Positions 887 through 41,342 of a stretch of DNA of 43,191 nucleotides are shown here, one piece after another. Numbering within the stretch: the first letter of the stretch is position 1; every line of letters starts with the position of its first letter. Made by a program: the position numbers and the translations under genes. This DNA is from a virus. The notes under the pieces were generated by a model, which did no database searches, was not told the DNA's origin, and worked only from the letters and a program-made list of their open reading frames with translations. The stretch lies in IMG/VR virus record IMGVR_UViG_3300028859_000002; one strand, written 5' to 3'.

Positions 887-3800
887 TTACTGATAATGCT
901 CTTCCACAACTATATACCCAGACCCACCTTGCCCACCCGGTGTGGCCCCAGAACCAGACCCTGCGGACCCTGCCGTTCCTGCCGTACCTACCGAATAGTA
1001 ATAAGTGGCCGAAGGAGAATAAATATTAGCTTCTTCATAACCGCCCGCGCCGCCCCCACATCCTCCCGATAGGGCTGTAGCACTACCCGGCCCACCCGAA
1101 CCACCTGACCCCGAGTTAGGTTGTCCATAGTTAGCAGCTCCCCCTGTTGTTGCTCCTGCCGCTCCACCAAATGGAGTTGCTCCACCACCACCCCCCACGT
1201 TTGCCAATGCAACCCCATTACTTGCTTGTCCCCCACTGCCAGGAATAGACACAAGATATGTTGCTGTGTTGCCGATCCCACCCGAACCACCCAAACCTGG
1301 ACCACCCGCAGCGTATGTATACCCCCCAGTGCCACCACCACAGTAAAGCAGATCTGTACCAAAAGTGGTAGCGCCCCCAGTGCCCCCAATGCCCCCAGTT
1401 GTGGTACTACCAGAACCGGCCCCACCGCCCCCGGCGCCTACTTGTTTTGCTTTTAAATAAAGTGGAGTTCGTGGGCTTGTTGGCGTCGTGTAGGTCGCTA
1501 AAGTTTGAATATTTGATGCAGAATTCGCCACTATGGTGGAAGGGCCAGTACCGCTAGATTTGGTAAATGTGGTACCGGATGTTGTTCCGCTTCCAGAAAA
1601 GAATAGTCCCACCGTAGCAGTGGAGACGGTATTGAGTAAGGTGTAGCTATTACTATTGTTCGTATAAACCGCACCCGCTGTAGCTGTAATGGTTGTAGTG
1701 GTAAGTGTAATGAGGACCCCGGTTTGAGAAGATCCAAATCCGCCTGTACCCGTTCCGGTAGCTGTGGCTATGCTTAGGGTTGGCGCTGTAAATGCCTGTA
1801 ATGTAGTTACACCACTCGTTGAAATCCCACCCACATAATATCCCGGGGTCGGCGTGGCGGCGAGCACACCGCCAAGTGTAGAAGTGGAAGGGTTTGGTAA
1901 ATCTGCACCCACAATCGCGCGCGGAGTAACTGCCCCGCTTGATCCATTTGGGGACGCTAGAAAAAGATTTGCACTCTCACTGGTTCCTGTGACCGCAAGC
2001 GTTCCGCTCGTAGTGATTGGAGATCCCCCAACCGTAAGCCATGACGGTACTGTAAGCGATACACTTGTCACAGTACCCAACCCCGTTCCAAACTGCACTA
2101 CACCGCTCGTTGAAATGCCGGTTACGAATTGACCAGGAGTCGGAGTTGCGGCGAGCACGCCACCTAGAGTCGTAGTAGTAGGATTGGGAAGATCAGCGCC
2201 TACGATCGCTCTCGGAGTCATTGCACCACTAGAGCCATTGGGAGAAGCCAAAAATAAATTTGCACTCTCACTTGTTCCGGTAATCGCCAAAGTTCCGCTT
2301 GTGGTGATCGGAGTTCCACCAACGGTTAACCATGCAGGAGCAGTTAGCGCAACTGAAGTTACGGACCCCGTACCATAAGCCGAACCTGCATCTATGAAGT
2401 TTCCGTTTGCATCAATTTTAACTCCGTGTCCAGTGGTCAGAGTTCCCGTTGATGTTGCGAGTTCAGTGGTATTTCCCGAAAGCGTTCCGGTCGTGATTGC
2501 AGAAGTTCCAGCACCAAAGAGAGGTGCCCCACTAGAAAGCGTTGTCGCGCCCGTTCCACCATATGGAACGCCCACAGTACTGCCATTCCATGCGCCATTT
2601 GTTACTGCTCCGGCATTATTGACCGAAAACAATTTTGTGCTTAGGGCAGAATTCCAGCCATCAAATAAATCTCCCGGAGTTGTAGCATTATTTGCGACCA
2701 TGAGAGCAGCTTTATTTGATATTCCGTAAACCTCAAGAGCCGCAACATCACTTGTGTTTCCATTAAACGATACTACCCCGACGTTATCGTGAACTTCCCT
2801 GAAACCGCCAACAGCAGGATTTTCAAGAATCATTGAAGACGCTGTTACGAACCAGTCCCAAGCTTGATAACCACTCGAACCAGGACCAATCCATACTTGA
2901 TTTAAATTGGTTCCAGTATCTGAATAAACCGTAATAGAATCCGTTAGAGTATTACTCCAAGTCGCATCACCACGCCAAAATGTTGCGCTAGATGCGTTTG
3001 TGGCAGAGTTTAAATTAGCAACTGGCAAGTTTCCAGTCACGTCTGAGTTCGATAAATTTACTGGCGAAAAACTCCAAGTTCCAGAAGAGACATGTGCAAT
3101 GCCCGTACTGCTTGAACTATCAATTCCAGTTCCACCACTTGAATCTGGAAGTGCAGATCCCGAAAGAGACACGGCCAAAGTCCCACTAGACGTTATTGGC
3201 GACCCAGATACCGATAGAAATGCTGGAACAGTCATTCCAACCGAAGTGACAGTCCCAAGACCGCCACCCGTCGCAAATAAAGGCACCCCAACCGATGATA
3301 TCCCGACCATGAACTGTCCTGGCGTCGGAGTCGCAGATAAAACACCTCCTAAAGTCGTTGACGTTGGATTGGGTAAATCTGCACCAACTATCGCTCGTGG
3401 GCTTAAAACACCACTTGCGCCGTTTGGAGAAGCCAAAAATTTGTTCTCTGTGACGGTCGTAGAACTGATTGTCATCGTACCACTGGACGTTACTGGAGAG
3501 CCTGCAACGCTTAGCCACGATGGAACTGCTAGACCAACTGAAGTGACGCCCGTACTTCCGGCGTTACACGCGGCACCAGCGTCTACCAAATTCCCATTTG
3601 AATCGATATCAACGCAGTGACCGGAAGTAAGCGCACCGCTTACGGTCGCGATCTCGGTCGTATTACCTGCAAAAGTCCCATTTGTAATCGGACTAGTTCC
3701 ATTTCCGATCAAAGGCTTTCCTGATGCGAGCGTAGTATCTCCAGTTCCACCATTGGCAACCCCTAGCGCCGTTCCTGAGAGAGTAAGTCCAAAACTTCCG

Positions 3801-4264
3801 CTTGTGGTAATTGGCGAACCGCTCACGGACAAGAAGGAAGGCACCGTCATTCCGACCGATGTCACCGTACCTATTCCTGTCACTGGGCCAAAAATCGGAG
3901 CACCAGTCCCGGCAATACCGATCACATATTCGCCAGGCGTAGGAGTCGCTGCCAGTACGCCACCCAGAGTAGTTTGAGTAGGAGTTGGCAGTGGATTGAC
4001 AGTTCCAATTTGATTAAAAGTAGTTCCATTATTGGAATATTCAATCGAATTATTTGAACTGTTATATCTTAATTTTGGATTTGTCGATGCCCCTGGAGCG
4101 GTAAGATTAAACTCGAGTACCTTGTTGGTATTTCCAGTCAAACCAAGAGATAAGTCGTTGTTGGGGATGACTGCGGGCGACTGCGCAGCCATAGCAACGG
4201 CCATCGCCCCAACACCCACAAGACCACCAATTAACGCAATGTATTTTTTAATTTTATTTTTCAT
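887..4264 (-). CDS. Large modular tail fibre / receptor-binding protein (1125 aa) with a Gly-rich C-terminal domain
   Basis: Five copies of a VTSV..VP.WL.V.G.PIT.SG unit. Three carry the phage-fibre motif FLASPNG.SG..PRAIVGADLPNP. Two copies of GGTG.TTL..G.PL.G....GH.V.ID.NGN..DAG. The last ~230 aa are Gly-rich and end GGSGYIVVEEHYQ. The N-terminus MKNKIKKYIALIGGLVGVGAMAVAMA-AQ looks like a Sec signal peptide. Confidence 0.8.
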   Translation of the reverse strand: MKNKIKKYIALIGGLVGVGAMAVAMAAQSPAVIPNNDLSLGLTGNTNKVLEFNLTAPGASTNPKLRYNSSNNSIEYSNNGTTFNQIGTVNPLPTPTQTTLGGVLAATPTPGEYVIGIAGTGAPIFGPVTGIGTVTSVGMTVPSFLSVSGSPITTSGSFGLTLSGTALGVANGGTGDTTLASGKPLIGNGTSPITNGTFAGNTTEIATVSGALTSGHCVDIDSNGNLVDAGAACNAGSTGVTSVGLAVPSWLSVAGSPVTSSGTMTISSTTVTENKFLASPNGASGVLSPRAIVGADLPNPTSTTLGGVLSATPTPGQFMVGISSVGVPLFATGGGLGTVTSVGMTVPAFLSVSGSPITSSGTLAVSLSGSALPDSSGGTGIDSSSSTGIAHVSSGTWSFSPVNLSNSDVTGNLPVANLNSATNASSATFWRGDATWSNTLTDSITVYSDTGTNLNQVWIGPGSSGYQAWDWFVTASSMILENPAVGGFREVHDNVGVVSFNGNTSDVAALEVYGISNKAALMVANNATTPGDLFDGWNSALSTKLFSVNNAGAVTNGAWNGSTVGVPYGGTGATTLSSGAPLFGAGTSAITTGTLSGNTTELATSTGTLTTGHGVKIDANGNFIDAGSAYGTGSVTSVALTAPAWLTVGGTPITTSGTLAITGTSESANLFLASPNGSSGAMTPRAIVGADLPNPTTTTLGGVLAATPTPGQFVTGISTSGVVQFGTGLGTVTSVSLTVPSWLTVGGSPITTSGTLAVTGTSESANLFLASPNGSSGAVTPRAIVGADLPNPSTSTLGGVLAATPTPGYYVGGISTSGVTTLQAFTAPTLSIATATGTGTGGFGSSQTGVLITLTTTTITATAGAVYTNNSNSYTLLNTVSTATVGLFFSGSGTTSGTTFTKSSGTGPSTIVANSASNIQTLATYTTPTSPRTPLYLKAKQVGAGGGGAGSGSTTTGGIGGTGGATTFGTDLLYCGGGTGGYTYAAGGPGLGGSGGIGNTATYLVSIPGSGGQASNGVALANVGGGGGATPFGGAAGATTGGAANYGQPNSGSGGSGGPGSATALSGGCGGGAGGYEEANIYSPSATYYYSVGTAGTAGSAGSGSGATPGGQGGSGYIVVEEHYQ

Positions 4265-36974: not shown

Positions 36975-37172
36975 TTACATAAGCCGATTCAAATTAAGAG
37001 TCAATCCATTTCGTTTTGCACCCCTTAAAACCGACGGCATGGCCAGTCTTGGAATCCTGCCGTTCACCCGCCATCTATGTACTCCGCTCGGCGCCCTGTT
37101 CACACCGCGAGCAGTCGCGCGTAATCCACCAAACTTTTTAATAAGATACTCTACTGAATTTTTCTTTTGCAT
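36975..37172 (-). CDS. Cro/YdaS-like DNA-binding protein (65 aa from ATG 37172)
   Basis: AAGGAA RBS. YLIKKFGGLRATARGVNRAPSGVHRWRVNGRIP resembles the YdaS/Cro HTH family. First gene of the minus-strand replication block. Confidence 0.5.
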   Translation of the reverse strand: MQKKNSVEYLIKKFGGLRATARGVNRAPSGVHRWRVNGRIPRLAMPSVLRGAKRNGLTLNLNRLM

Positions 37173-37207
37173 TTTAATTCCTTGTGGTTTAATGTTCACA
37201 TCATAGC

Positions 37208-38122
37208 ATGAAAACAATTAGTGTAGTACCAAAAAATGAGCAGGAATGGCTAGCGCTCAGAGCGAAAAATCTGAACTCAACTGAAATCCCTGCTTTATTC
37301 GACCTTTCACCTTACATGACAAAATTCGAGTTATGGCATCGGCACAAGGAAAACGTAGTCGTAGATTTCCAGGAGAACCCCCGGACTTTATGGGGTAAAC
37401 GACTTCAGAACTCGATTGCCGAAGGCATTGCAAAAGATCAAGGCTGGATCGTTTCTGAAATGAAACAATACATTTACGATGAGCAGCTCAGGATTGGATC
37501 CAGCTTTGATTTTTGTGTTGAAGGAGATCCTAATGGAATACTCGAGATCAAAAACGTGGACTTTATCCAATTCCGCGACAAGTGGACCAAAAACGAAGAC
37601 GGAACTTTCGAAGCGCCAGCTCACATTGAGCTTCAAGTGCAGCACCAAATGTTACTTGCAGATGTCTCATACTGCTATATCGGCGCACTAATCTCTGGTA
37701 ACGACATTAAGCTAATTCGCAGGGAAGCAGATAAAGAAATCCACGCAGTAATCCTAGACAAGTGCGCAGGATTCTGGCATTCAATCGATACGAACGAAGC
37801 ACCACAACCGGACTTCTTAAAAGACGCTGATATCATCGGGAAATTATATGGCTACGCAGAACCAGGCAAAACGCTCACGACCGATTCACAAGAACTCCTC
37901 GCGCTCGCAGAACAGTATAAAGTCTGCGGGAAACAAGCGACAGAATACGAAAATGCTAGAAAAGCGATCAAAGCGCAGATCCTCAGTCTTATTGGAGATG
38001 TCGAGCGAGTTGAACACCCATTGTTTTCAATCTCTGCTAAGTGCAGTCCACCCACTTTTGTTAAAGCTTTTGAACGAGCTGGTGTCAGAAATTTCAGAAT
38101 CACTGAACGAAAGGTAAAATAA
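37208..38122 (+). CDS. YqaJ-type (lambda Exo-like) recombination exonuclease (304 aa)
   Basis: WLALRAKNLNSTEIPALFDLSPYMTKFELWH, plus the D...LEIKN PD-(D/E)xK core. Confidence 0.8.
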   Translation: MKTISVVPKNEQEWLALRAKNLNSTEIPALFDLSPYMTKFELWHRHKENVVVDFQENPRTLWGKRLQNSIAEGIAKDQGWIVSEMKQYIYDEQLRIGSSFDFCVEGDPNGILEIKNVDFIQFRDKWTKNEDGTFEAPAHIELQVQHQMLLADVSYCYIGALISGNDIKLIRREADKEIHAVILDKCAGFWHSIDTNEAPQPDFLKDADIIGKLYGYAEPGKTLTTDSQELLALAEQYKVCGKQATEYENARKAIKAQILSLIGDVERVEHPLFSISAKCSPPTFVKAFERAGVRNFRITERKVK

Positions 38123-38445
38123 TGGAAATAAAAAACAGAGAAGAACGTCAAGCAGACAGTCTGATTGATACCCTCGCAAACGCAAAAGTCATGATGGAGG
38201 CCGTTGCAAAAAAAATGCAAGGGTCACTCAAGAAAACGATTGAGCTTGAAAATGATTTTGTTAGAATCATGGAAGTTCAAACTCAGTTCGATAAACGACT
38301 TTCGGCTATTGAAGAAGCGTTTCACCGTGGAGGAATTCCTGGATTTAGAACACACTGGCTAAAGCGTGTTTTTAAAATCAAAGACCATCTATCTCACCTG
38401 GAGTTAAAAGATAATGCAGACAGAACAAGCCAAAACGCTTCCTAG
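38122..38445 (+). CDS. Hypothetical coiled-coil protein (107 aa)
   Basis: TAATG coupling to the exonuclease gene. Helical composition. Confidence 0.55.
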   Translation: MEIKNREERQADSLIDTLANAKVMMEAVAKKMQGSLKKTIELENDFVRIMEVQTQFDKRLSAIEEAFHRGGIPGFRTHWLKRVFKIKDHLSHLELKDNADRTSQNAS

Positions 38446-38827
38446 GCAAGTTATTCTTAAAAAACAATCGCCCGAACCGTCAGACCAGCAAACACGCACC
38501 GATTCGGCGAGATCCGTTTTTATTTTTAATACCCCATCCGATCAACAGAATATTCAAAACGCTCGCAAGTTTAAAGCTCAATTCGGCATGCGAAAGGCCA
38601 GATTTAATCTTCCAGTCAATCCACAGACATTCTCGTTCCTTTATCTTTTAACTGAAGCGATGCCTGCGAACTTCTCGCATCCACGCGTTTATAACTATAG
38701 TGAGGTTCCAAATGAATCAGCCAAACCAGCCAGCCCAACCCCAGCAGTCAAACCAAGTCGCCCGAACAGGATTTCAGGGCCAACCGCCAGCAGCGCAGCC
38801 GCAGTCAAGAGCAATAAGCCCGATTGA
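38414..38827 (+). CDS. Questionable ORF (137 aa) overlapping both neighbours
   Basis: TGGAG lies 10 nt before ATG 38414. It overlaps the previous gene by 32 nt and recT by 116 nt. Its 3' end is an alternative-frame reading of the Gln/Pro-rich RecT leader. Confidence 0.3.
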   Translation: MQTEQAKTLPRQVILKKQSPEPSDQQTRTDSARSVFIFNTPSDQQNIQNARKFKAQFGMRKARFNLPVNPQTFSFLYLLTEAMPANFSHPRVYNYSEVPNESAKPASPTPAVKPSRPNRISGPTASSAAAVKSNKPD

Positions 38828-39701
38828 GGACTTCGCTAGATCCCTAAAGGTATCTGAAGGACAGTTCAAGCCACTGCTTCCGGCACACGTTCCGTTTGAG
38901 AAATTCACTCAGATTGTTTGCTCGGCACTAGCTAAAAATCCAGGCCTTCTGCAATACGATCGCGCATCGCTTTTCACCGCTTGCGTGGACGCCGCAAAAG
39001 ACGGACTCATGCCAGATGGCAAGGAAGGCGCTCTCGTTCCATTTAAAGGCAAGGTCGTTTATCAGCCCATGGTCGGAGGGATTTTAAAGAAAATTCGGAA
39101 CAGCGGTGAACTTAGTTCGATAAATCCGCAAATTATTCGGTCAAACGATACATTCGATTATTATATTGACGAAAAAGGTCCGCATCTAATGCACAGACCT
39201 AACTTCCAAAACCCAGGCGAAATGACAGGGACATATACGCTTGCTGTAATGAAAGACGGTGGAATTTACCTAGAGGTGATGACAAAGGAACAAGTGGACA
39301 AGATTCGTGCGCGATCACCTTCAGGAACGTCAGGACCATGGGTTTCTGACTATGAAGAGATGGCTAAAAAAACTGGACTCAAGAGACTATCAAAGCGCCT
39401 GCCGATGAGTACCGACATTGAGTCGTTTTTTGGTCAGGATGACGAGGTTGATGCTATCACCGAACAGACCCAAGCAGTTCATCAGGTAGCTTCAACGGCT
39501 GAAACCGCAACGCCAGTACAAGCTGCCTCAGCGAGCGCTCCTGGAGTCGTACAAGGCCCATCAAAATTAAAATCAGCACTGAAGGCAAAAGAACCGCTTC
39601 CACCAGCTCAAGAAATAATCCAAACCACGGCGACGCCGATTTTAACGAATCGAGAAGACCCAGGGCCGATGGATTTTAACGATCCGAACTTACCACTATG
39701 A
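38712..39701 (+). CDS. recT: RecT-family single-strand annealing protein (329 aa)
   Basis: GTGAGG RBS. A Gln/Pro-rich N-terminal extension, then LPAHVPFEKFTQIV...NPGLL...CVDAAKDGLMPDGKEGALVPFKGKVVYQPMVGGILKK, which is typical RecT. Confidence 0.85.
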   Translation: MNQPNQPAQPQQSNQVARTGFQGQPPAAQPQSRAISPIEDFARSLKVSEGQFKPLLPAHVPFEKFTQIVCSALAKNPGLLQYDRASLFTACVDAAKDGLMPDGKEGALVPFKGKVVYQPMVGGILKKIRNSGELSSINPQIIRSNDTFDYYIDEKGPHLMHRPNFQNPGEMTGTYTLAVMKDGGIYLEVMTKEQVDKIRARSPSGTSGPWVSDYEEMAKKTGLKRLSKRLPMSTDIESFFGQDDEVDAITEQTQAVHQVASTAETATPVQAASASAPGVVQGPSKLKSALKAKEPLPPAQEIIQTTATPILTNREDPGPMDFNDPNLPL

Positions 39702-40012
39702 AAGGAAGAAAAATGACCGCAAAAACAAAAAAACCATACGTTATCGTTCGTTCACATACAGCAGGAGTCCATGCAGGATATCTTGAATCTCGAAAAGGAG
39801 ATACCGTCACACTCACAAAATCTCGCCGTCTTTGGAAGTGGTTCGGAGCAAGTCTATCTCAGGTGGCGACAAGCGGATTAGCAGCAGGCGATAATAAAAT
39901 CGGCGCGCCTGTTCCGAAAACAGAAATCGTAAGCCCACAAGGTTTTGAAATTTCACACTGTACCAAAGAAGCGGAGAGAAACATCGTGGAGTTTTCTCAA
40001 TGGAAAGTGTAA
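39698..40012 (+). CDS. Conserved hypothetical phage protein (104 aa; alternative ATG 39713 after AAGGAAG)
   Basis: YVIVRSHTAGVHAGYL....GDTV.L..SRRLWKW.GA.LSQVA..G is a pattern I recall from a widespread phage family of unknown function. Confidence 0.6.
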   Translation: MKGRKMTAKTKKPYVIVRSHTAGVHAGYLESRKGDTVTLTKSRRLWKWFGASLSQVATSGLAAGDNKIGAPVPKTEIVSPQGFEISHCTKEAERNIVEFSQWKV

Positions 40013-40329
40013 AAGAGAACATAGGCGACGGCTACGGCGACGGCTCCGGCGACGGCTACGGCTCCGGCTCCGGCTACGGCGACGGCTCCGGCGACGGCTC
40101 CGGCGACGGCGACGGCTCCGGCTACGGCGACGGCTACGGCTACGGCTCCGGCTACGGCGACGGCTACGGCGACGGCTCCGGCGACGGCTACGGCTCCGGC
40201 TCCGGCTACGGCGACGGCTACGGCGACGGCTCCGGCGACGGCGACGGCTCCGGCTACGGCGACGGCTACGGCTACGGCTCCGGCTACGGCGACGGCTACG
40301 GCGACGGCTCCGGCGACGGCGACGGCTGA
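40000..40329 (+). CDS. Acidic (Gly-Asp/Tyr/Ser)50 dipeptide-repeat protein (109 aa)
   Basis: ATG 40000 overlaps the upstream stop. MESVKENI is followed by 50 uninterrupted G-X dipeptides (X = D, Y or S) and a final Gly, using a single codon per residue. Which frame is translated is not proven. Confidence 0.5.
   Translation: MESVKENIGDGYGDGSGDGYGSGSGYGDGSGDGSGDGDGSGYGDGYGYGSGYGDGYGDGSGDGYGSGSGYGDGYGDGSGDGDGSGYGDGYGYGSGYGDGYGDGSGDGDG
40024..40326. repeat. Hexanucleotide (GGC-GAC/TAC/TCC) array with a 132-bp higher-order tandem unit, about 2.3 copies
   Basis: 40024-40155 and 40156-40287 differ at one base (TCC vs TAC), followed by a 36-bp partial copy. About 75-80 percent GC by codon composition. 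Confidence 0.9.
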
Positions 40330-40375
40330 ATAAACTTTAACAATAAACTAGGAGGTTTTTATTTTCACAACCCAT

Positions 40376-40573
40376 ATGCTAAACCCAGAAGGCAAAAAAC
40401 AGATGGACGCTTTTAAAACAGCGGCATCTAATTTCGTAACCGAAGTCACTCAATCCATGGAAGAATCAAGAGAGAAGTCTATTTTCTTGACGAAAATCGA
40501 TGAAGCTGTTTTCTTTGGAGCTAAGGCAATCGCTCAAATGGACGATAACCACGAGAGTAAGAAAGATTACTAA
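40376..40573 (+). CDS. Small helical protein (65 aa), possibly of the Acb2/Tad1-hairpin-like sponge type
   Basis: SREKSIFLTKIDEAVFFGAKAIAQ fits the sRe.SlalTklEEA.mWa.kAI pattern I associate with that family. GGAGG sits unusually far (20 nt) from the ATG. Confidence 0.5.
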   Translation: MLNPEGKKQMDAFKTAASNFVTEVTQSMEESREKSIFLTKIDEAVFFGAKAIAQMDDNHESKKDY

Positions 40574-40767
40574 ATTTCACCCTGAATTCTGATAACCTAA
40601 TCGAACCAGGACTCAGGGGGAAAGTTTCGATGAGCGCTCATCGAACGAACGTTGCACGGTAGTCGTTAATATGACCGTGTCGGACTGGGGTGGACTTGCC
40701 GTAATGTGTGTGCCACAAAACTTCGAGCGGTGTTTCAGCGACCGACGGACAGGCTGGAGGGAGTAGC
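40574..40767 (+). ncRNA. Candidate structured untranslated RNA (3' UTR or sRNA), GC-rich
   Basis: No ORF of 60 aa or more on either strand. 18-bp perfect palindrome TCGATGAGCGCTCATCGA (40627-40644). Hairpins CACGGT/ACCGTG (40655-40679) and TTCAGC/GCTGGA (40734-40758). A terminator follows. Confidence 0.3.
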
Positions 40768-40800
40768 GCCGCACCATACGCGGCCAAACTTTATTCTTTT
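40768..40800 (+). terminator. Intrinsic terminator of the recombination/accessory operon
   Basis: GCCGC-accatac-GCGGC hairpin (40768-40784) followed by the T-rich caaactttattctttt. Confidence 0.5.
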
Positions 40801-40865
40801 AAATATATCAATCAAACTGTAAACTTTAACCAAGCCACTAAACAAAAAAAGAAAGCGATACTAAA

Positions 40866-41051
40866 ATGACAGTAGCAGAAGTGTTAGCATGGTTTGCAGC
40901 AAGTGAAATTTTGAGCACCGACAACGTAGTAATTATCGATGCAGCGGGAGTTTCCCGTACCATCGTTGGATTCGTGAGAATCGGAAACGAACAGAACATC
41001 CTTCCAGCAGGAAGTGACACTGCTCCTTACGTTAAAATCACCTTAGAGTAA
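40866..41051 (+). CDS. Hypothetical protein (61 aa)
   Basis: ORF after the terminator. Weak GAAAG RBS. Confidence 0.45.
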   Translation: MTVAEVLAWFAASEILSTDNVVIIDAAGVSRTIVGFVRIGNEQNILPAGSDTAPYVKITLE

Positions 41052-41141
41052 GCTCATCGGCCAATTTTGTACACATGGTCCTGCTAACAACGACGCCATG
41101 CAACCGATTTAAAGTGTAGGATAATAATCGGCATTAATATT

Positions 41142-41342
41142 ATGAGAGTTTTACTTCCAAAAAAAGGTTATTCCATCAATCCAATGCGCGATTTCCCGCG
41201 CAACGACGCATGCCCATGTAAGTCGGACAAAAAATTCAAAAAGTGTTGCTACCAAAAACAGCCTTTATTTATCGACTCGACAGTAGCTGAAGGCCTTGAG
41301 ATCGCGATGAAACAGTACAAATCGAAACAAGTAAATCGCTAA
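41142..41342 (+). CDS. SEC-C-motif mini-protein (66 aa)
   Basis: NDACPCKSDKKFKKCCY matches the SecA C-terminal zinc motif CPCGSGKKYKKCC. Confidence 0.6.
   Translation: MRVLLPKKGYSINPMRDFPRNDACPCKSDKKFKKCCYQKQPLFIDSTVAEGLEIAMKQYKSKQVNR

Follow-up and report, generated by a model that had tools for sequence, protein, structure and literature searches.

The window analysed here is a stretch of 43,191 nt of viral DNA (IMG/VR record IMGVR_UViG_3300028859_000002). A gene encoding a strictly alternating Gly-X protein was located at positions 40000-40329 (+), directly downstream of a gene at 39698-40012 (+) assigned to DUF6948 (PF22253; Pfam E = 5.8e-21), for which JGI calls a start at 39713 (99 aa). 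Further upstream, we identified a gene for a RecT-family single-strand annealing protein (38700-39701, +; Pfam E = 3.1e-35) and one for a YqaJ-type exonuclease (37208-38122, +; Pfam E = 7.1e-15). Downstream, a 65-aa ORF (40376-40573, +) matched the Acb2/Tad1 hairpin domain of the anti-CBASS/anti-Thoeris sponge family (Pfam, 33.3 bits against a cutoff of 27) and PHROG 1454, of unknown function.

Structure of the repeat gene

The ORF at 40000-40329, hereafter the tract gene, encodes 109 amino acids: an 8-aa leader, MESVKENI (40000-40023), 50 Gly-X dipeptides and a final Gly (40024-40326, as (GGC-NNC)50 plus GGC), followed immediately by a TGA stop codon. Only four sense codons were used in the array (51 GGC, 20 GAC, 16 TAC and 14 TCC), which had a GC content of 0.782, compared with 0.455 for the whole window. 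The predicted product is strongly acidic (net charge about -21), with 20 Asp and 2 Glu against 1 Lys, and without Lys or Arg in the tract itself. Tandem Repeats Finder reported the array as the only tandem repeat in the window. It is made of two higher-order units of 132 nt (40024-40155 and 40156-40287), which differ at one base only (C at 40088, A at 40220), and of a partial third unit (40288-40326) of 39 nt with one mismatch to the start of unit 1. The longest exact internal repeat was 100 nt, at a shift of 132. All three forward frames and two of the three reverse frames were open across the array.

The ATG at 40000 lies inside the DUF6948 ORF, with an overlap of 13 nt (40000-40012; ATGGAAAGTGTAA). 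It uses the TG of the conserved C-terminal Trp codon of DUF6948, and the tract frame is +2 relative to DUF6948. A Shine-Dalgarno-like GGAG motif was found 8 nt upstream of the ATG (39988-39991).

The 303-nt array was identical in seven independently assembled contigs, made by different pipelines, and the exact 109-aa product is on record on 19 contigs. However, two short contigs carried the same array minus exactly one 132-nt unit (a putative 65-aa allele), with identical flanks, and three others ended inside the array, one of these with a partial array that differed from that of the window. The copy number therefore rests on short-read assemblies.

The observation on which the original prediction was based, a single-codon Gly-X array behind an 8-aa leader, was thus confirmed, with small corrections. 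The partial third copy is 39 nt long rather than 36 nt, the gene immediately upstream is a DUF6948 gene, with recT one gene further up, and the open alternative frames are a by-product of the GGC/NNC codon choice, since relatives that use GGT-GAC (for example locus L319) have TGA in the +2 frame.

Distribution and sequence constraints of the tract family

To determine whether the array was unique, we performed pattern scans, including one without codon bias. Gly-[Tyr/Asp/Ser/Asn] tracts were found in more than 120 viral contigs and more than 120 bacterial genomes from many phyla, the locus sets being pattern-selected. Members of the family have Gly at every second position over at least 8 repeats, with X almost only Tyr, Asp, Ser or Asn and no Lys or Arg in the tract, as in the window array. 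A blastn search of 37000-41200 against 50,697 deposited phage records gave no match, but tract genes were present in cultured phages, such as Ralstonia phage NK-7 (gene pair XCO36016.1 and XCO36015.1), in which the tract gene is annotated as "fibroin heavy chain-like protein", and Vibrio phage IKEMa6-1. Some phages carried up to five tract genes in tandem. Of 276 tract ORFs, 150 were stand-alone genes consisting of almost nothing but the tract.

The same residues were encoded with different codon sets in different lineages (GGC + TAT/GAT/TCT, GGG + TAC/GAC/TCC, GGT + TAC/TCC/GAC and GGA + GAT/TAT/AAT), although each array used one codon per residue. A universal GGC/NNC codon rule, which would have implied a constraint at the DNA or RNA level, was therefore rejected. 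Close relatives with 60-80% identical DUF6948 proteins kept the leader (MESIKENI, MDGVKEN) but differed in tract length (17, 27 or 50 repeats) and in codons. Among 3,642 unconstrained NNC positions, Tyr, Asp, Ser and Asn codons accounted for 95%; Val and Leu codons never occurred, and Ala, Ile, Arg, Thr and Pro were each below 0.3% (GCC, 0.27%), although several of these codons are a single mutation away from an abundant codon. This means that selection acts on the protein, while slippage or unequal recombination homogenises each array. Exact internal repeats of at least 48 nt were more frequent than expected after shuffling (62 versus 15 arrays, respectively).

Family-wide, the tracts were composed of Gly (0.485), Tyr (0.18), Ser (0.13) and Asp (0.13), with Lys + Arg below 1%. 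Overall, 97% of tracts were net negative, and Tyr or Phe was present in every one of 75 stand-alone tracts. Some members nevertheless had very few Asp, for example 3 of 44 X positions in locus L018 and none of 19 X positions in the 3'-truncated tract of locus L017.

Association with DUF6948

The conserved neighbour of the tract genes was DUF6948 rather than exo/recT. By BLAST clustering, DUF6948 was the same-strand upstream neighbour in 132 loci, and an HMM hit was found within 700 nt upstream on the same strand in 74-93% of tract loci (81/87, 24/28 and 48/65 in three locus sets). Conversely, a tract gene was found downstream in 12/12 DUF6948-anchored loci and in 6/6 deposited phage records. 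In 119 of 130 junctions, the tract start lay inside the DUF6948 ORF, the commonest overlap being 13 nt (44 cases), as in the window; in 81 junctions the start overlapped a TGG codon, and in 101 the tract was in the +2 frame. In-frame fusions were also observed (loci L038, P0046, P0094 and P0099). By contrast, recombination genes lay within 3 kb, on either side, in only 47 of 253 loci. The tract was also fused, at its N- or C-terminal side, to unrelated domains, namely DUF7666, a ~156-aa C-terminal domain and a ~55-aa "GAC" motif domain; hhalign comparisons of DUF6948 with DUF7666 and with the ~156-aa domain showed no relation. The tract may therefore have a role that does not depend on its partner.

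DUF6948 comprises about 2,457 clusters at 50% identity, and residues R44, W46 and W48 were found to be invariant. The AlphaFold2 model of the window protein, built with a 40-sequence alignment, had a pLDDT of 91.6. All of the top 50 Foldseek matches in the PDB were Sm/LSm chains, with a probability of about 0.99 and TM of 0.45-0.65, but with weak E-values (0.025-0.2), and sequence and profile searches of the PDB detected no similarity to Sm/Hfq. The resemblance of this predicted small beta-barrel to Sm/LSm proteins is at the fold level only, and the N-terminal helix is lacking. The tract protein, modelled from its single sequence, gave only a low-confidence coil without secondary structure (pLDDT 37.8); it is predicted to be disordered, although such a run on a low-complexity protein cannot exclude ordered assembly, for example beta-sheet formation with cations.

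Family libraries gave little further information. For the tract, Pfam returned only a sub-threshold low-complexity match to TrAA12 (26.7 bits against a cutoff of 30.9), which was dismissed. DUF6948 had one weak hit to a PHROG of unknown function, and PADLOC and NCBIfam returned nothing for either protein. A PDB search with the class-B C-terminal domain found nothing meaningful. Full-text literature searches on the tract motifs, on DUF6948, DUF7666, PF22253 and PF24703, on fibroin-like proteins of phages, including Ralstonia phages, and on Sm-like or glycine-rich prophage proteins found nothing relevant.

Proposed role of the gene pair

The interpretation given in the original prediction was only partly supported. 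The tract is a genuine protein-coding gene read in the Gly-X frame, as relatives keep the start, the frame and the residue classes while changing codons. That the array is recently expanded or homogenised was also supported, by the near-identical 132-nt units, the single codon per residue and the length differences between close relatives. By contrast, the claim that no phage family of this kind had been described needs changing: we found no paper, but the gene belongs to a very large family in public data. The proposed analogy with Gam rested on adjacency to exo/recT, which is loose, and the DUF6948 partner had not been recognised. The silk-like character is compositional only. The proposals of a nucleic-acid mimic and of a condensate scaffold both fit the family-wide features (acidity, aromatic residues and near absence of Lys/Arg), but a folded mimic of the Ocr/Gam type is not supported.

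We consider, with moderate confidence, that the tract gene is the second gene of a conserved two-gene phage cassette, in which it encodes an intrinsically disordered (as predicted), acidic-aromatic low-complexity tail for a predicted Sm/LSm-like protein, and that the two proteins probably act together. The position of the start within the last codons of DUF6948 suggests that they are translated together. In this view, the repeat protein would be the detachable tail of the barrel protein, a flexible, multivalent strip of carboxylates, tyrosines and hydroxyls without positive charges, which could compete for, or bridge, basic nucleic-acid-binding surfaces. Its job would be to tune what the barrel protein, or a target of the pair, binds during early infection. 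The array would change by slippage or unequal recombination of 6-nt and longer units, which explains the single codon per residue and the near-identical 132-nt units, while selection keeps the residue classes. The gene pairing, the overlap, the fusions, the protein-level selection and the predictions of fold and disorder are results of our analysis, whereas joint translation, physical interaction of the two proteins, ring formation and RNA binding by DUF6948, competition with nucleic acids and the biological role are inferred. A simple model in which an acidic tail binds a basic ring is not general: charges were complementary in the window (+8 for DUF6948 and -20 for the tract), but only 61% of DUF6948 proteins were net positive, with a median of +1, and the idea was dropped as a general rule.

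A programmed -1 frameshift fusing DUF6948 to the tract was also considered, given the prevalence of the +2 frame. However, the overlap (caATGGAAAGTGTAA; CAA TGG AAA GTG TAA in the DUF6948 frame) lacks a canonical slippery heptamer, a GGAG precedes the ATG, and 28 junctions use the other frame; coupled reinitiation is the simpler reading.

Comparison with related systems

Eukaryotic Sm/LSm proteins such as SmD1, SmD3 and SmB, with Gly-Arg repeats, and LSm4 combine a small Sm-type beta-barrel with a C-terminal Gly-X dipeptide or low-complexity tail, as a single polypeptide, which is also the arrangement in some relatives of the present locus (L038, P0099). Here, the tail is acidic and aromatic (Asp/Tyr/Ser) rather than basic, is phage-encoded and is usually a separate, overlapping gene, as in the window, and there is no detectable sequence homology. 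In bacterial Hfq, an Sm core carries a Gly-rich and/or acidic disordered tail that competes with nucleic acid and tunes binding, and the repeat number matters for function; examples are the acidic C-terminal domain of Escherichia coli and Caulobacter Hfq, which acts as a nucleic-acid mimic (PMC5606850, PMC6561178), and the GGFGGQ repeats of Acinetobacter baumannii Hfq (PMC11617691). The present tail differs from these in being split off as its own gene, in its strictly dipeptide alternation and in its richness in Tyr.

Silk fibroin heavy chain (GAGAGS/GAGAGY crystalline repeats) shares strict Gly-X alternation, with Ser and Tyr among the X residues. However, the tract contains no Ala and about 18-20% Asp (18% in the window protein), is about 100 aa rather than about 5,000 aa long, has neither a secretion signal nor terminal domains, and is a cytoplasmic phage early gene predicted to be disordered. 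FUS-family prion-like low-complexity domains share a Gly/Ser/Tyr-rich composition and [G/S]Y[G/S] motifs, all 16 Tyr of the window protein being flanked by Gly, but they are near-neutral and Gln/Ser-rich, whereas the tract is highly acidic, contains no Gln, has a perfectly periodic dipeptide register and is far shorter. The phage DNA mimics Ocr, ArdA, Gam and Arn are, like the tract, acidic phage early proteins, but they are folded and rigid, with carboxylates in B-DNA geometry, and no match to these families was found in Pfam, PHROG or PADLOC. The dipeptide-repeat proteins from the C9orf72 GGGGCC expansion (poly-GA, poly-GR and poly-GP) are likewise Gly-X polymers encoded by an expansion-prone hexanucleotide repeat, but they are pathological products of non-ATG translation, while the tract is a normal ATG-initiated gene in a single selected frame, with mixed X residues, conserved and presumably beneficial.

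Alternative explanations

A condensate scaffold is possible but unlikely. In this hypothesis, GYG "stickers" in a Gly/Ser/Asp spacer would drive phase separation, with the putative Sm-like DUF6948 as an oligomeric hub, by analogy with LSm proteins with low-complexity tails in eukaryotic RNA granules, and the condensate would concentrate recombination or replication factors or sequester host factors. The 16 GYG motifs, the constant presence of Tyr or Phe, the variable and tolerated length, which fits a property that depends on valency, the predicted fold of the partner and the tandem tract genes are consistent with it. However, the high net negative charge and the absence of Arg/Lys disfavour homotypic condensation; a cationic partner would be needed, and DUF6948 is not consistently basic.

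A stand-alone anti-nuclease or anti-restriction decoy, as originally proposed, seems somewhat less likely still. The acidic strip would imitate DNA or ssDNA and block RecBCD/AddAB, restriction enzymes or another DNA-sensing defence, in functional analogy with Gam or Ocr, DUF6948 being only a chaperone or irrelevant. The regularly spaced Asp and aromatic residues, the location in the early, recombination region and the adjacent Acb2/Tad1-like gene, which in L319 lies directly upstream of DUF6948, are in favour of this reading. Against it, no similarity to any known mimic and no PADLOC or anti-defence family hit was found, the protein is predicted to be disordered rather than a rigid phosphate-mimicking fold, some members have very few Asp, linkage to recombination genes is loose, and the near-obligate pairing with DUF6948 is left unexplained.

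A neutral, expansion-prone microsatellite, tolerated as a floppy linker or tail, is improbable. It would account for the single codon per residue, the variable copy number with recent duplications and the occurrence of the tract beside unrelated domains, but not for the strong purifying selection on residue class, the many genes that consist of little else, the conserved start codon with a stop immediately after the array, or the persistence of the family across many phyla.

A DNA- or RNA-level element (origin iterons, a structured RNA or a recombination hotspot), suggested by the GC-rich repeat, the five open frames and the nearby recombination genes, is largely refuted: the amino-acid pattern but not the nucleotide sequence is conserved between lineages, alternative frames close in relatives using GGT-GAC, the RNA folds much less stably than composition-matched shuffles (z = +7.6), and structured RNA, tRNA and Rfam elements were rejected, with no Rfam hit. 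An assembly artefact is very improbable despite the broken and shortened contigs, given the identical assemblies and the hundreds of analogous arrays elsewhere, including in cultured-phage genomes.

Three further identities were rejected. A RiPP precursor was not supported, as the leader is only 8 aa long and no maturase (radical SAM, YcaO or similar) was found among the Pfam-annotated genes within 10 kb on either side. A phase-variable locus was rejected because the 6-nt and 132-nt units change length and not frame upon slippage. For a diversity-generating retroelement target, no reverse transcriptase was found among the neighbouring Pfam hits, the window contained no second copy, and the array was identical in seven assemblies.

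More speculatively, and doubtful on present evidence, the pair could be a previously unrecognised, widespread class of phage effector, in which an Sm-like ring would carry or deploy a disordered polypeptide imitating single-stranded nucleic acid, with Asp standing in for phosphate and Tyr for the base. It would jam host ssDNA/RNA-binding nucleases, SSB-dependent machinery or nucleic-acid-sensing defence systems, or would nucleate a protective condensate; either would be a disordered decoy mechanism distinct from all folded DNA-mimic proteins and a new mechanism in phage-host conflict.

Whatever its role, a strictly alternating Gly-X protein with only three or four allowed side chains is one of the simplest protein designs seen in nature. 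Here, it is under clear purifying selection, spread through phages and prophages of many bacterial phyla and locked to one partner gene of unknown function. Sm-like cores with low-complexity tails are already known; the pair adds a putative example from prokaryotic viruses, with the tail usually encoded separately. It also gives a testable handle on two uncharacterised families at once, including in cultured phages (NK-7 and IKEMa6-1) that could be used for genetics. Moreover, the arrays were found to be systematically misannotated, as gene callers often pick the wrong frame within them, and assemblies break or collapse there.

The (Gly-X)n array

Examination of the window sequence confirmed the observation. 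The region 40000-40329 (+) is an ORF of 109 codons, which encodes the leader MESVKENI, followed by 50 Gly-X dipeptides, a final Gly and a TGA stop. The array (40024-40326) uses only four codons, GGC (51), GAC (20), TAC (16) and TCC (14), and has a GC content of 0.782, against 0.455 for the window as a whole. It contains two 132-nt units (40024-40155 and 40156-40287), which differ at a single base and are followed by a 39-nt partial third copy. Tandem Repeats Finder reported this array as the only tandem repeat in the window. The ATG overlaps the upstream ORF by 13 nt, with a GGAG located 8 nt upstream, and all three forward frames are open across the array.

The same 303-nt array was present, base for base, in seven independently assembled contigs of ~43 kb that we examined, and the exact 109-aa product is on record on 19 contigs. 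The feature is therefore real, although its exact copy number rests on short reads. Indeed, two short contigs (L011, 2773-2943; L012, 1948-2118) carried a 65-aa allele corresponding to the window array minus exactly one 132-nt unit at offset 66, with identical flanks. Three other contigs (L008-L010) ended inside the array, and the partial array of L010 (5864-6067) was arranged differently from that of the window. These differences reflect either real copy-number polymorphism or short-read collapse.

Distribution of Gly-X tracts in viral and bacterial sequences

To determine if the array is unique, we scanned IMG/VR viral contigs for (GGCNNC)x10 and found at least 120 matching loci. In these loci, the X codons were almost only TAC and GAC, plus either TCC or AAC, in contigs whose overall GC content ranged from 0.36 to 0.73. 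About half of the tract ORFs (150 of 276) were stand-alone genes like the one studied here, with a leader of 10-30 aa, 25-60 repeats and a stop within 0-2 codons after the array. In others, the tract was fused to a globular domain: DUF6948; DUF7666; a ~156-aa C-terminal domain with an 'AHGETL...WHHRLTGSC..GR' signature; or a ~55-aa N-terminal 'GAC.DGV' domain. Some phages carried several tract genes in tandem: contig L173 had five arrays in a row at a spacing of about 260 nt (1720-2923), L014 had four paralogues whose tracts also contain Arg (2379-3397 on the reverse-complemented locus), L095 had three, and MW202898 had two (L340, about 2779-3300).

A scan of one genome per bacterial species likewise gave at least 120 hits, including Streptomyces, Sphingomonas, cyanobacteria (among them Trichodesmium erythraeum IMS101), Acidobacteriota, Oscillospiraceae, Myxococcota and Prevotella. 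Moreover, these arrays were frequently mis-framed by gene callers. Gene_25 of Chlorobiaceae phage CV-1-33 (GenBank MT192033; L338, 2780-3025) is annotated as 'MAMAMALAMA...', a JGI call on L323 (4313-4534) reads 'LALALAMAMA...', and two contig-end calls, on L009 (10300-10506, -) and L010 (5837-6067, -), are on the opposite strand. The Gly-X frame, with its overlapping start, is the conserved one.

Selection at the protein level

Because the first pattern imposed GGC/NNC, we repeated the scan with the Gly and X codons left free, as (GGNDMY)x12. Other lineages were found to encode the same Gly-[Tyr/Asp/Ser/Asn] pattern with different codon sets, namely GGC+TAT/GAT/TCT in low-GC contigs, GGG+TAC/GAC/TCC, GGT+TAC/TCC/GAC, GGA+GAT/TAT/AAT, and GGT+TCT/TAT/GAT, whereas each individual array still used essentially one codon per residue. 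Close relatives of this phage, with 60-80% identical DUF6948, kept the leader (MESIKENI, MDGVKEN) but differed in tract length (17, 27 or 50 repeats), in composition and in codons. Among 3,642 X positions at which the first two bases were unconstrained, Tyr, Asp, Ser and Asn codons made up 95%; Val and Leu codons never occurred, and Ala, Ile, Arg, Thr and Pro were each below 0.3%, although several of these codons are one mutation from an abundant codon. The dominant X residues Tyr, Asp, Asn and, less often, His are exactly the four amino acids decoded by GUN-anticodon (queuosine-modified) tRNAs, with Ser as the one frequent exception; this is a compositional observation only.

The alternative frames are open only because of the GGC/NNC choice, as relatives using GGT-GAC have TGA in the +2 frame. 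As RNA, the array was predicted to fold far less stably than composition-matched shuffles (z = +7.6), and searches for Rfam families and tRNAs returned no hit. We conclude that selection acts on the protein in the Gly-X frame, and that codon monotony and near-identical long units reflect slippage or unequal recombination within arrays. Exact internal repeats of 48 nt or more were observed in 62 of 162 arrays, against 15 after shuffling of the hexamer order.

Association with DUF6948

To identify conserved neighbors, we clustered all ORFs within 3 kb of tract genes in about 300 loci. One dominant cluster emerged, corresponding to the DUF6948 family, to which the window ORF 39698-40012 belongs, and which lay upstream on the same strand in 132 loci. 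Using an HMM, a DUF6948 hit was found within 700 nt upstream in 81/87, 24/28 and 48/65 tract loci with enough upstream sequence, in the two viral scans and the genome scan, respectively; these locus sets were selected by pattern and limited to 120 rows per scan, and the proportions depend on the thresholds used. In the other direction, 12 of 12 DUF6948-anchored viral loci had a tract gene downstream, as did all 6 deposited phage records with DUF6948: Ralstonia phage NK-7, in which the gene is annotated 'fibroin heavy chain-like protein'; phage CV-1-33, in which it is annotated in the wrong frame; Vibrio phage IKEMa6-1; and three uncultured-virus records.

The junction between the two genes was also conserved. 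DUF6948 ends ...W-x-x-x-stop, and the tract start overlaps that Trp codon. In 119/130 junctions the start lay inside the DUF6948 ORF, with a commonest overlap of 13 nt (44 cases), exactly as in the window, and 101/130 tracts were in the +2 frame. In-frame fusions of DUF6948 to a tract were also observed (L038, P0046, P0094 and P0099). Among the DUF6948 relatives, we found other variant architectures: DUF6948 fused to a Gly-[Met/Leu] repeat (P0283), a tandem double DUF6948 (P0251), and DUF6948 with a fused acidic Gly/Ser/Asn-rich tail ending ...DDDGF (P0304).

Recombination genes recurred nearby, but only loosely: ERF, RecT, YqaJ, SSB and PD-(D/E)XK genes, all Pfam-confirmed, were located on either side in 47 of 253 loci. 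The position right after exo/recT, emphasized in the original prediction, is therefore true here but is not the defining context.

Predicted structure of DUF6948 and properties of the tract protein

DUF6948 had no annotated function in Pfam or PHROGs and no match in PADLOC or NCBIfam, and sequence searches of the PDB found nothing. A profile search of 1.84 billion representative proteins identified 2,457 DUF6948 clusters at E <= 1e-3. AlphaFold2 with a 40-sequence alignment gave a confident model (pLDDT 91.6) of a small beta-barrel. All 50 best Foldseek matches in the PDB were Sm/LSm chains, with a probability of about 0.99 and a TM of 0.45-0.65, but with weak E-values of 0.025-0.2, and the Sm assignment is at fold level only. 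In the viral structure library, the best matches were other DUF6948 proteins, followed, with weak E-values, by several phage proteins named 'Sm-like' or 'Hfq-like'.

The tract protein itself was predicted to be disordered (pLDDT 37.8, from a single sequence). Across 75 stand-alone tracts, the composition was Gly 0.485, Tyr 0.18, Ser 0.13, Asp 0.13 and Asn 0.035, with Lys+Arg below 1%; 97% of the tracts were net negative, with a median of -10, and none lacked Tyr/Phe. DUF6948 was only inconsistently basic, so simple charge complementarity is not general.

Interpretation and comparison with other systems

The analysis itself establishes the overlapping gene layout, which suggests translational coupling, the occasional fusion of the two genes and the selection at the protein level, together with an Sm-like fold prediction for one partner and a disorder prediction for the other. 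That the tract protein is the detachable low-complexity tail of the predicted Sm-like protein is inferred, as are its translation, oligomerization of DUF6948, any interaction between the two and any biological role. Gly-Arg dipeptide tails are found on SmD1/D3/B. Other Sm-family cores with functional disordered tails include Hfq, whose acidic C-terminal domain mimics nucleic acid and autoregulates RNA binding (PMC5606850, PMC6561178), and Acinetobacter baumannii Hfq, in which the number of GGFGGQ repeats matters for function (PMC11617691). In this view, a flexible strip of carboxylates, tyrosines and hydroxyls with no positive charge would be well suited to occupy basic, aromatic-lined nucleic-acid-binding surfaces, either on DUF6948 or on a target. 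We consider it very likely that the gene encodes a translated partner protein of DUF6948, whereas the nucleic-acid-competitor mechanism specifically is only a tentative possibility.

Overall, the interpretation given in the original prediction was partly supported. Among the alternatives, a condensate scaffold finds some echo in the GYG motif that the tract shares with FUS-like domains, although it does not share their neutral, Gln-rich composition. A stand-alone anti-nuclease decoy ranks next, but the protein, as predicted from its single sequence, did not have the features tested for folded DNA mimics. A neutral linker and a DNA or RNA element both run against the selection on the protein, and an artefact is the least likely, given the identical array in seven assemblies.

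The gene likewise did not fulfil the criteria examined for silk fibroin, RiPP precursors, phase-variable loci or diversity-generating retroelement targets. The closest functional analogy is that of an Sm-like core with a low-complexity tail, from which the present case differs by the acidic-aromatic strict dipeptide repeat, the split, overlapping gene arrangement, and the phage setting. We found no publication on this family; cultured phages that carry the pair could serve for experiments.

Neighboring genes in the window

A 65-aa ORF directly downstream of the tract gene (40376-40573, +) matched the Acb2/Tad1 hairpin domain, an anti-CBASS/anti-Thoeris sponge family (33.3 bits against a cutoff of 27), although the nearest AGGAGG is 21 nt from the called ATG, so its true start is uncertain. 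In the relative L319, a 114-aa Acb2/Tad1-like gene (3642-3986) was instead located directly upstream of DUF6948, and the cassette may therefore lie in an anti-defence neighborhood. The stretch of about 290 nt between the Acb2-like ORF and the next called gene (40574-40865) contained no convincing ORF and gave no Rfam or tRNA hit, whereas a 66-aa ORF further downstream (41142-41342, +) carried a SEC-C zinc-binding motif. Finally, the RecT protein (38700-39701, +) ends ...EDPGPMDFNDPNLPL, which resembles the acidic C-terminal tip of bacterial SSB (...DFDDDIPF) and may be a motif for docking onto SSB-interaction partners.
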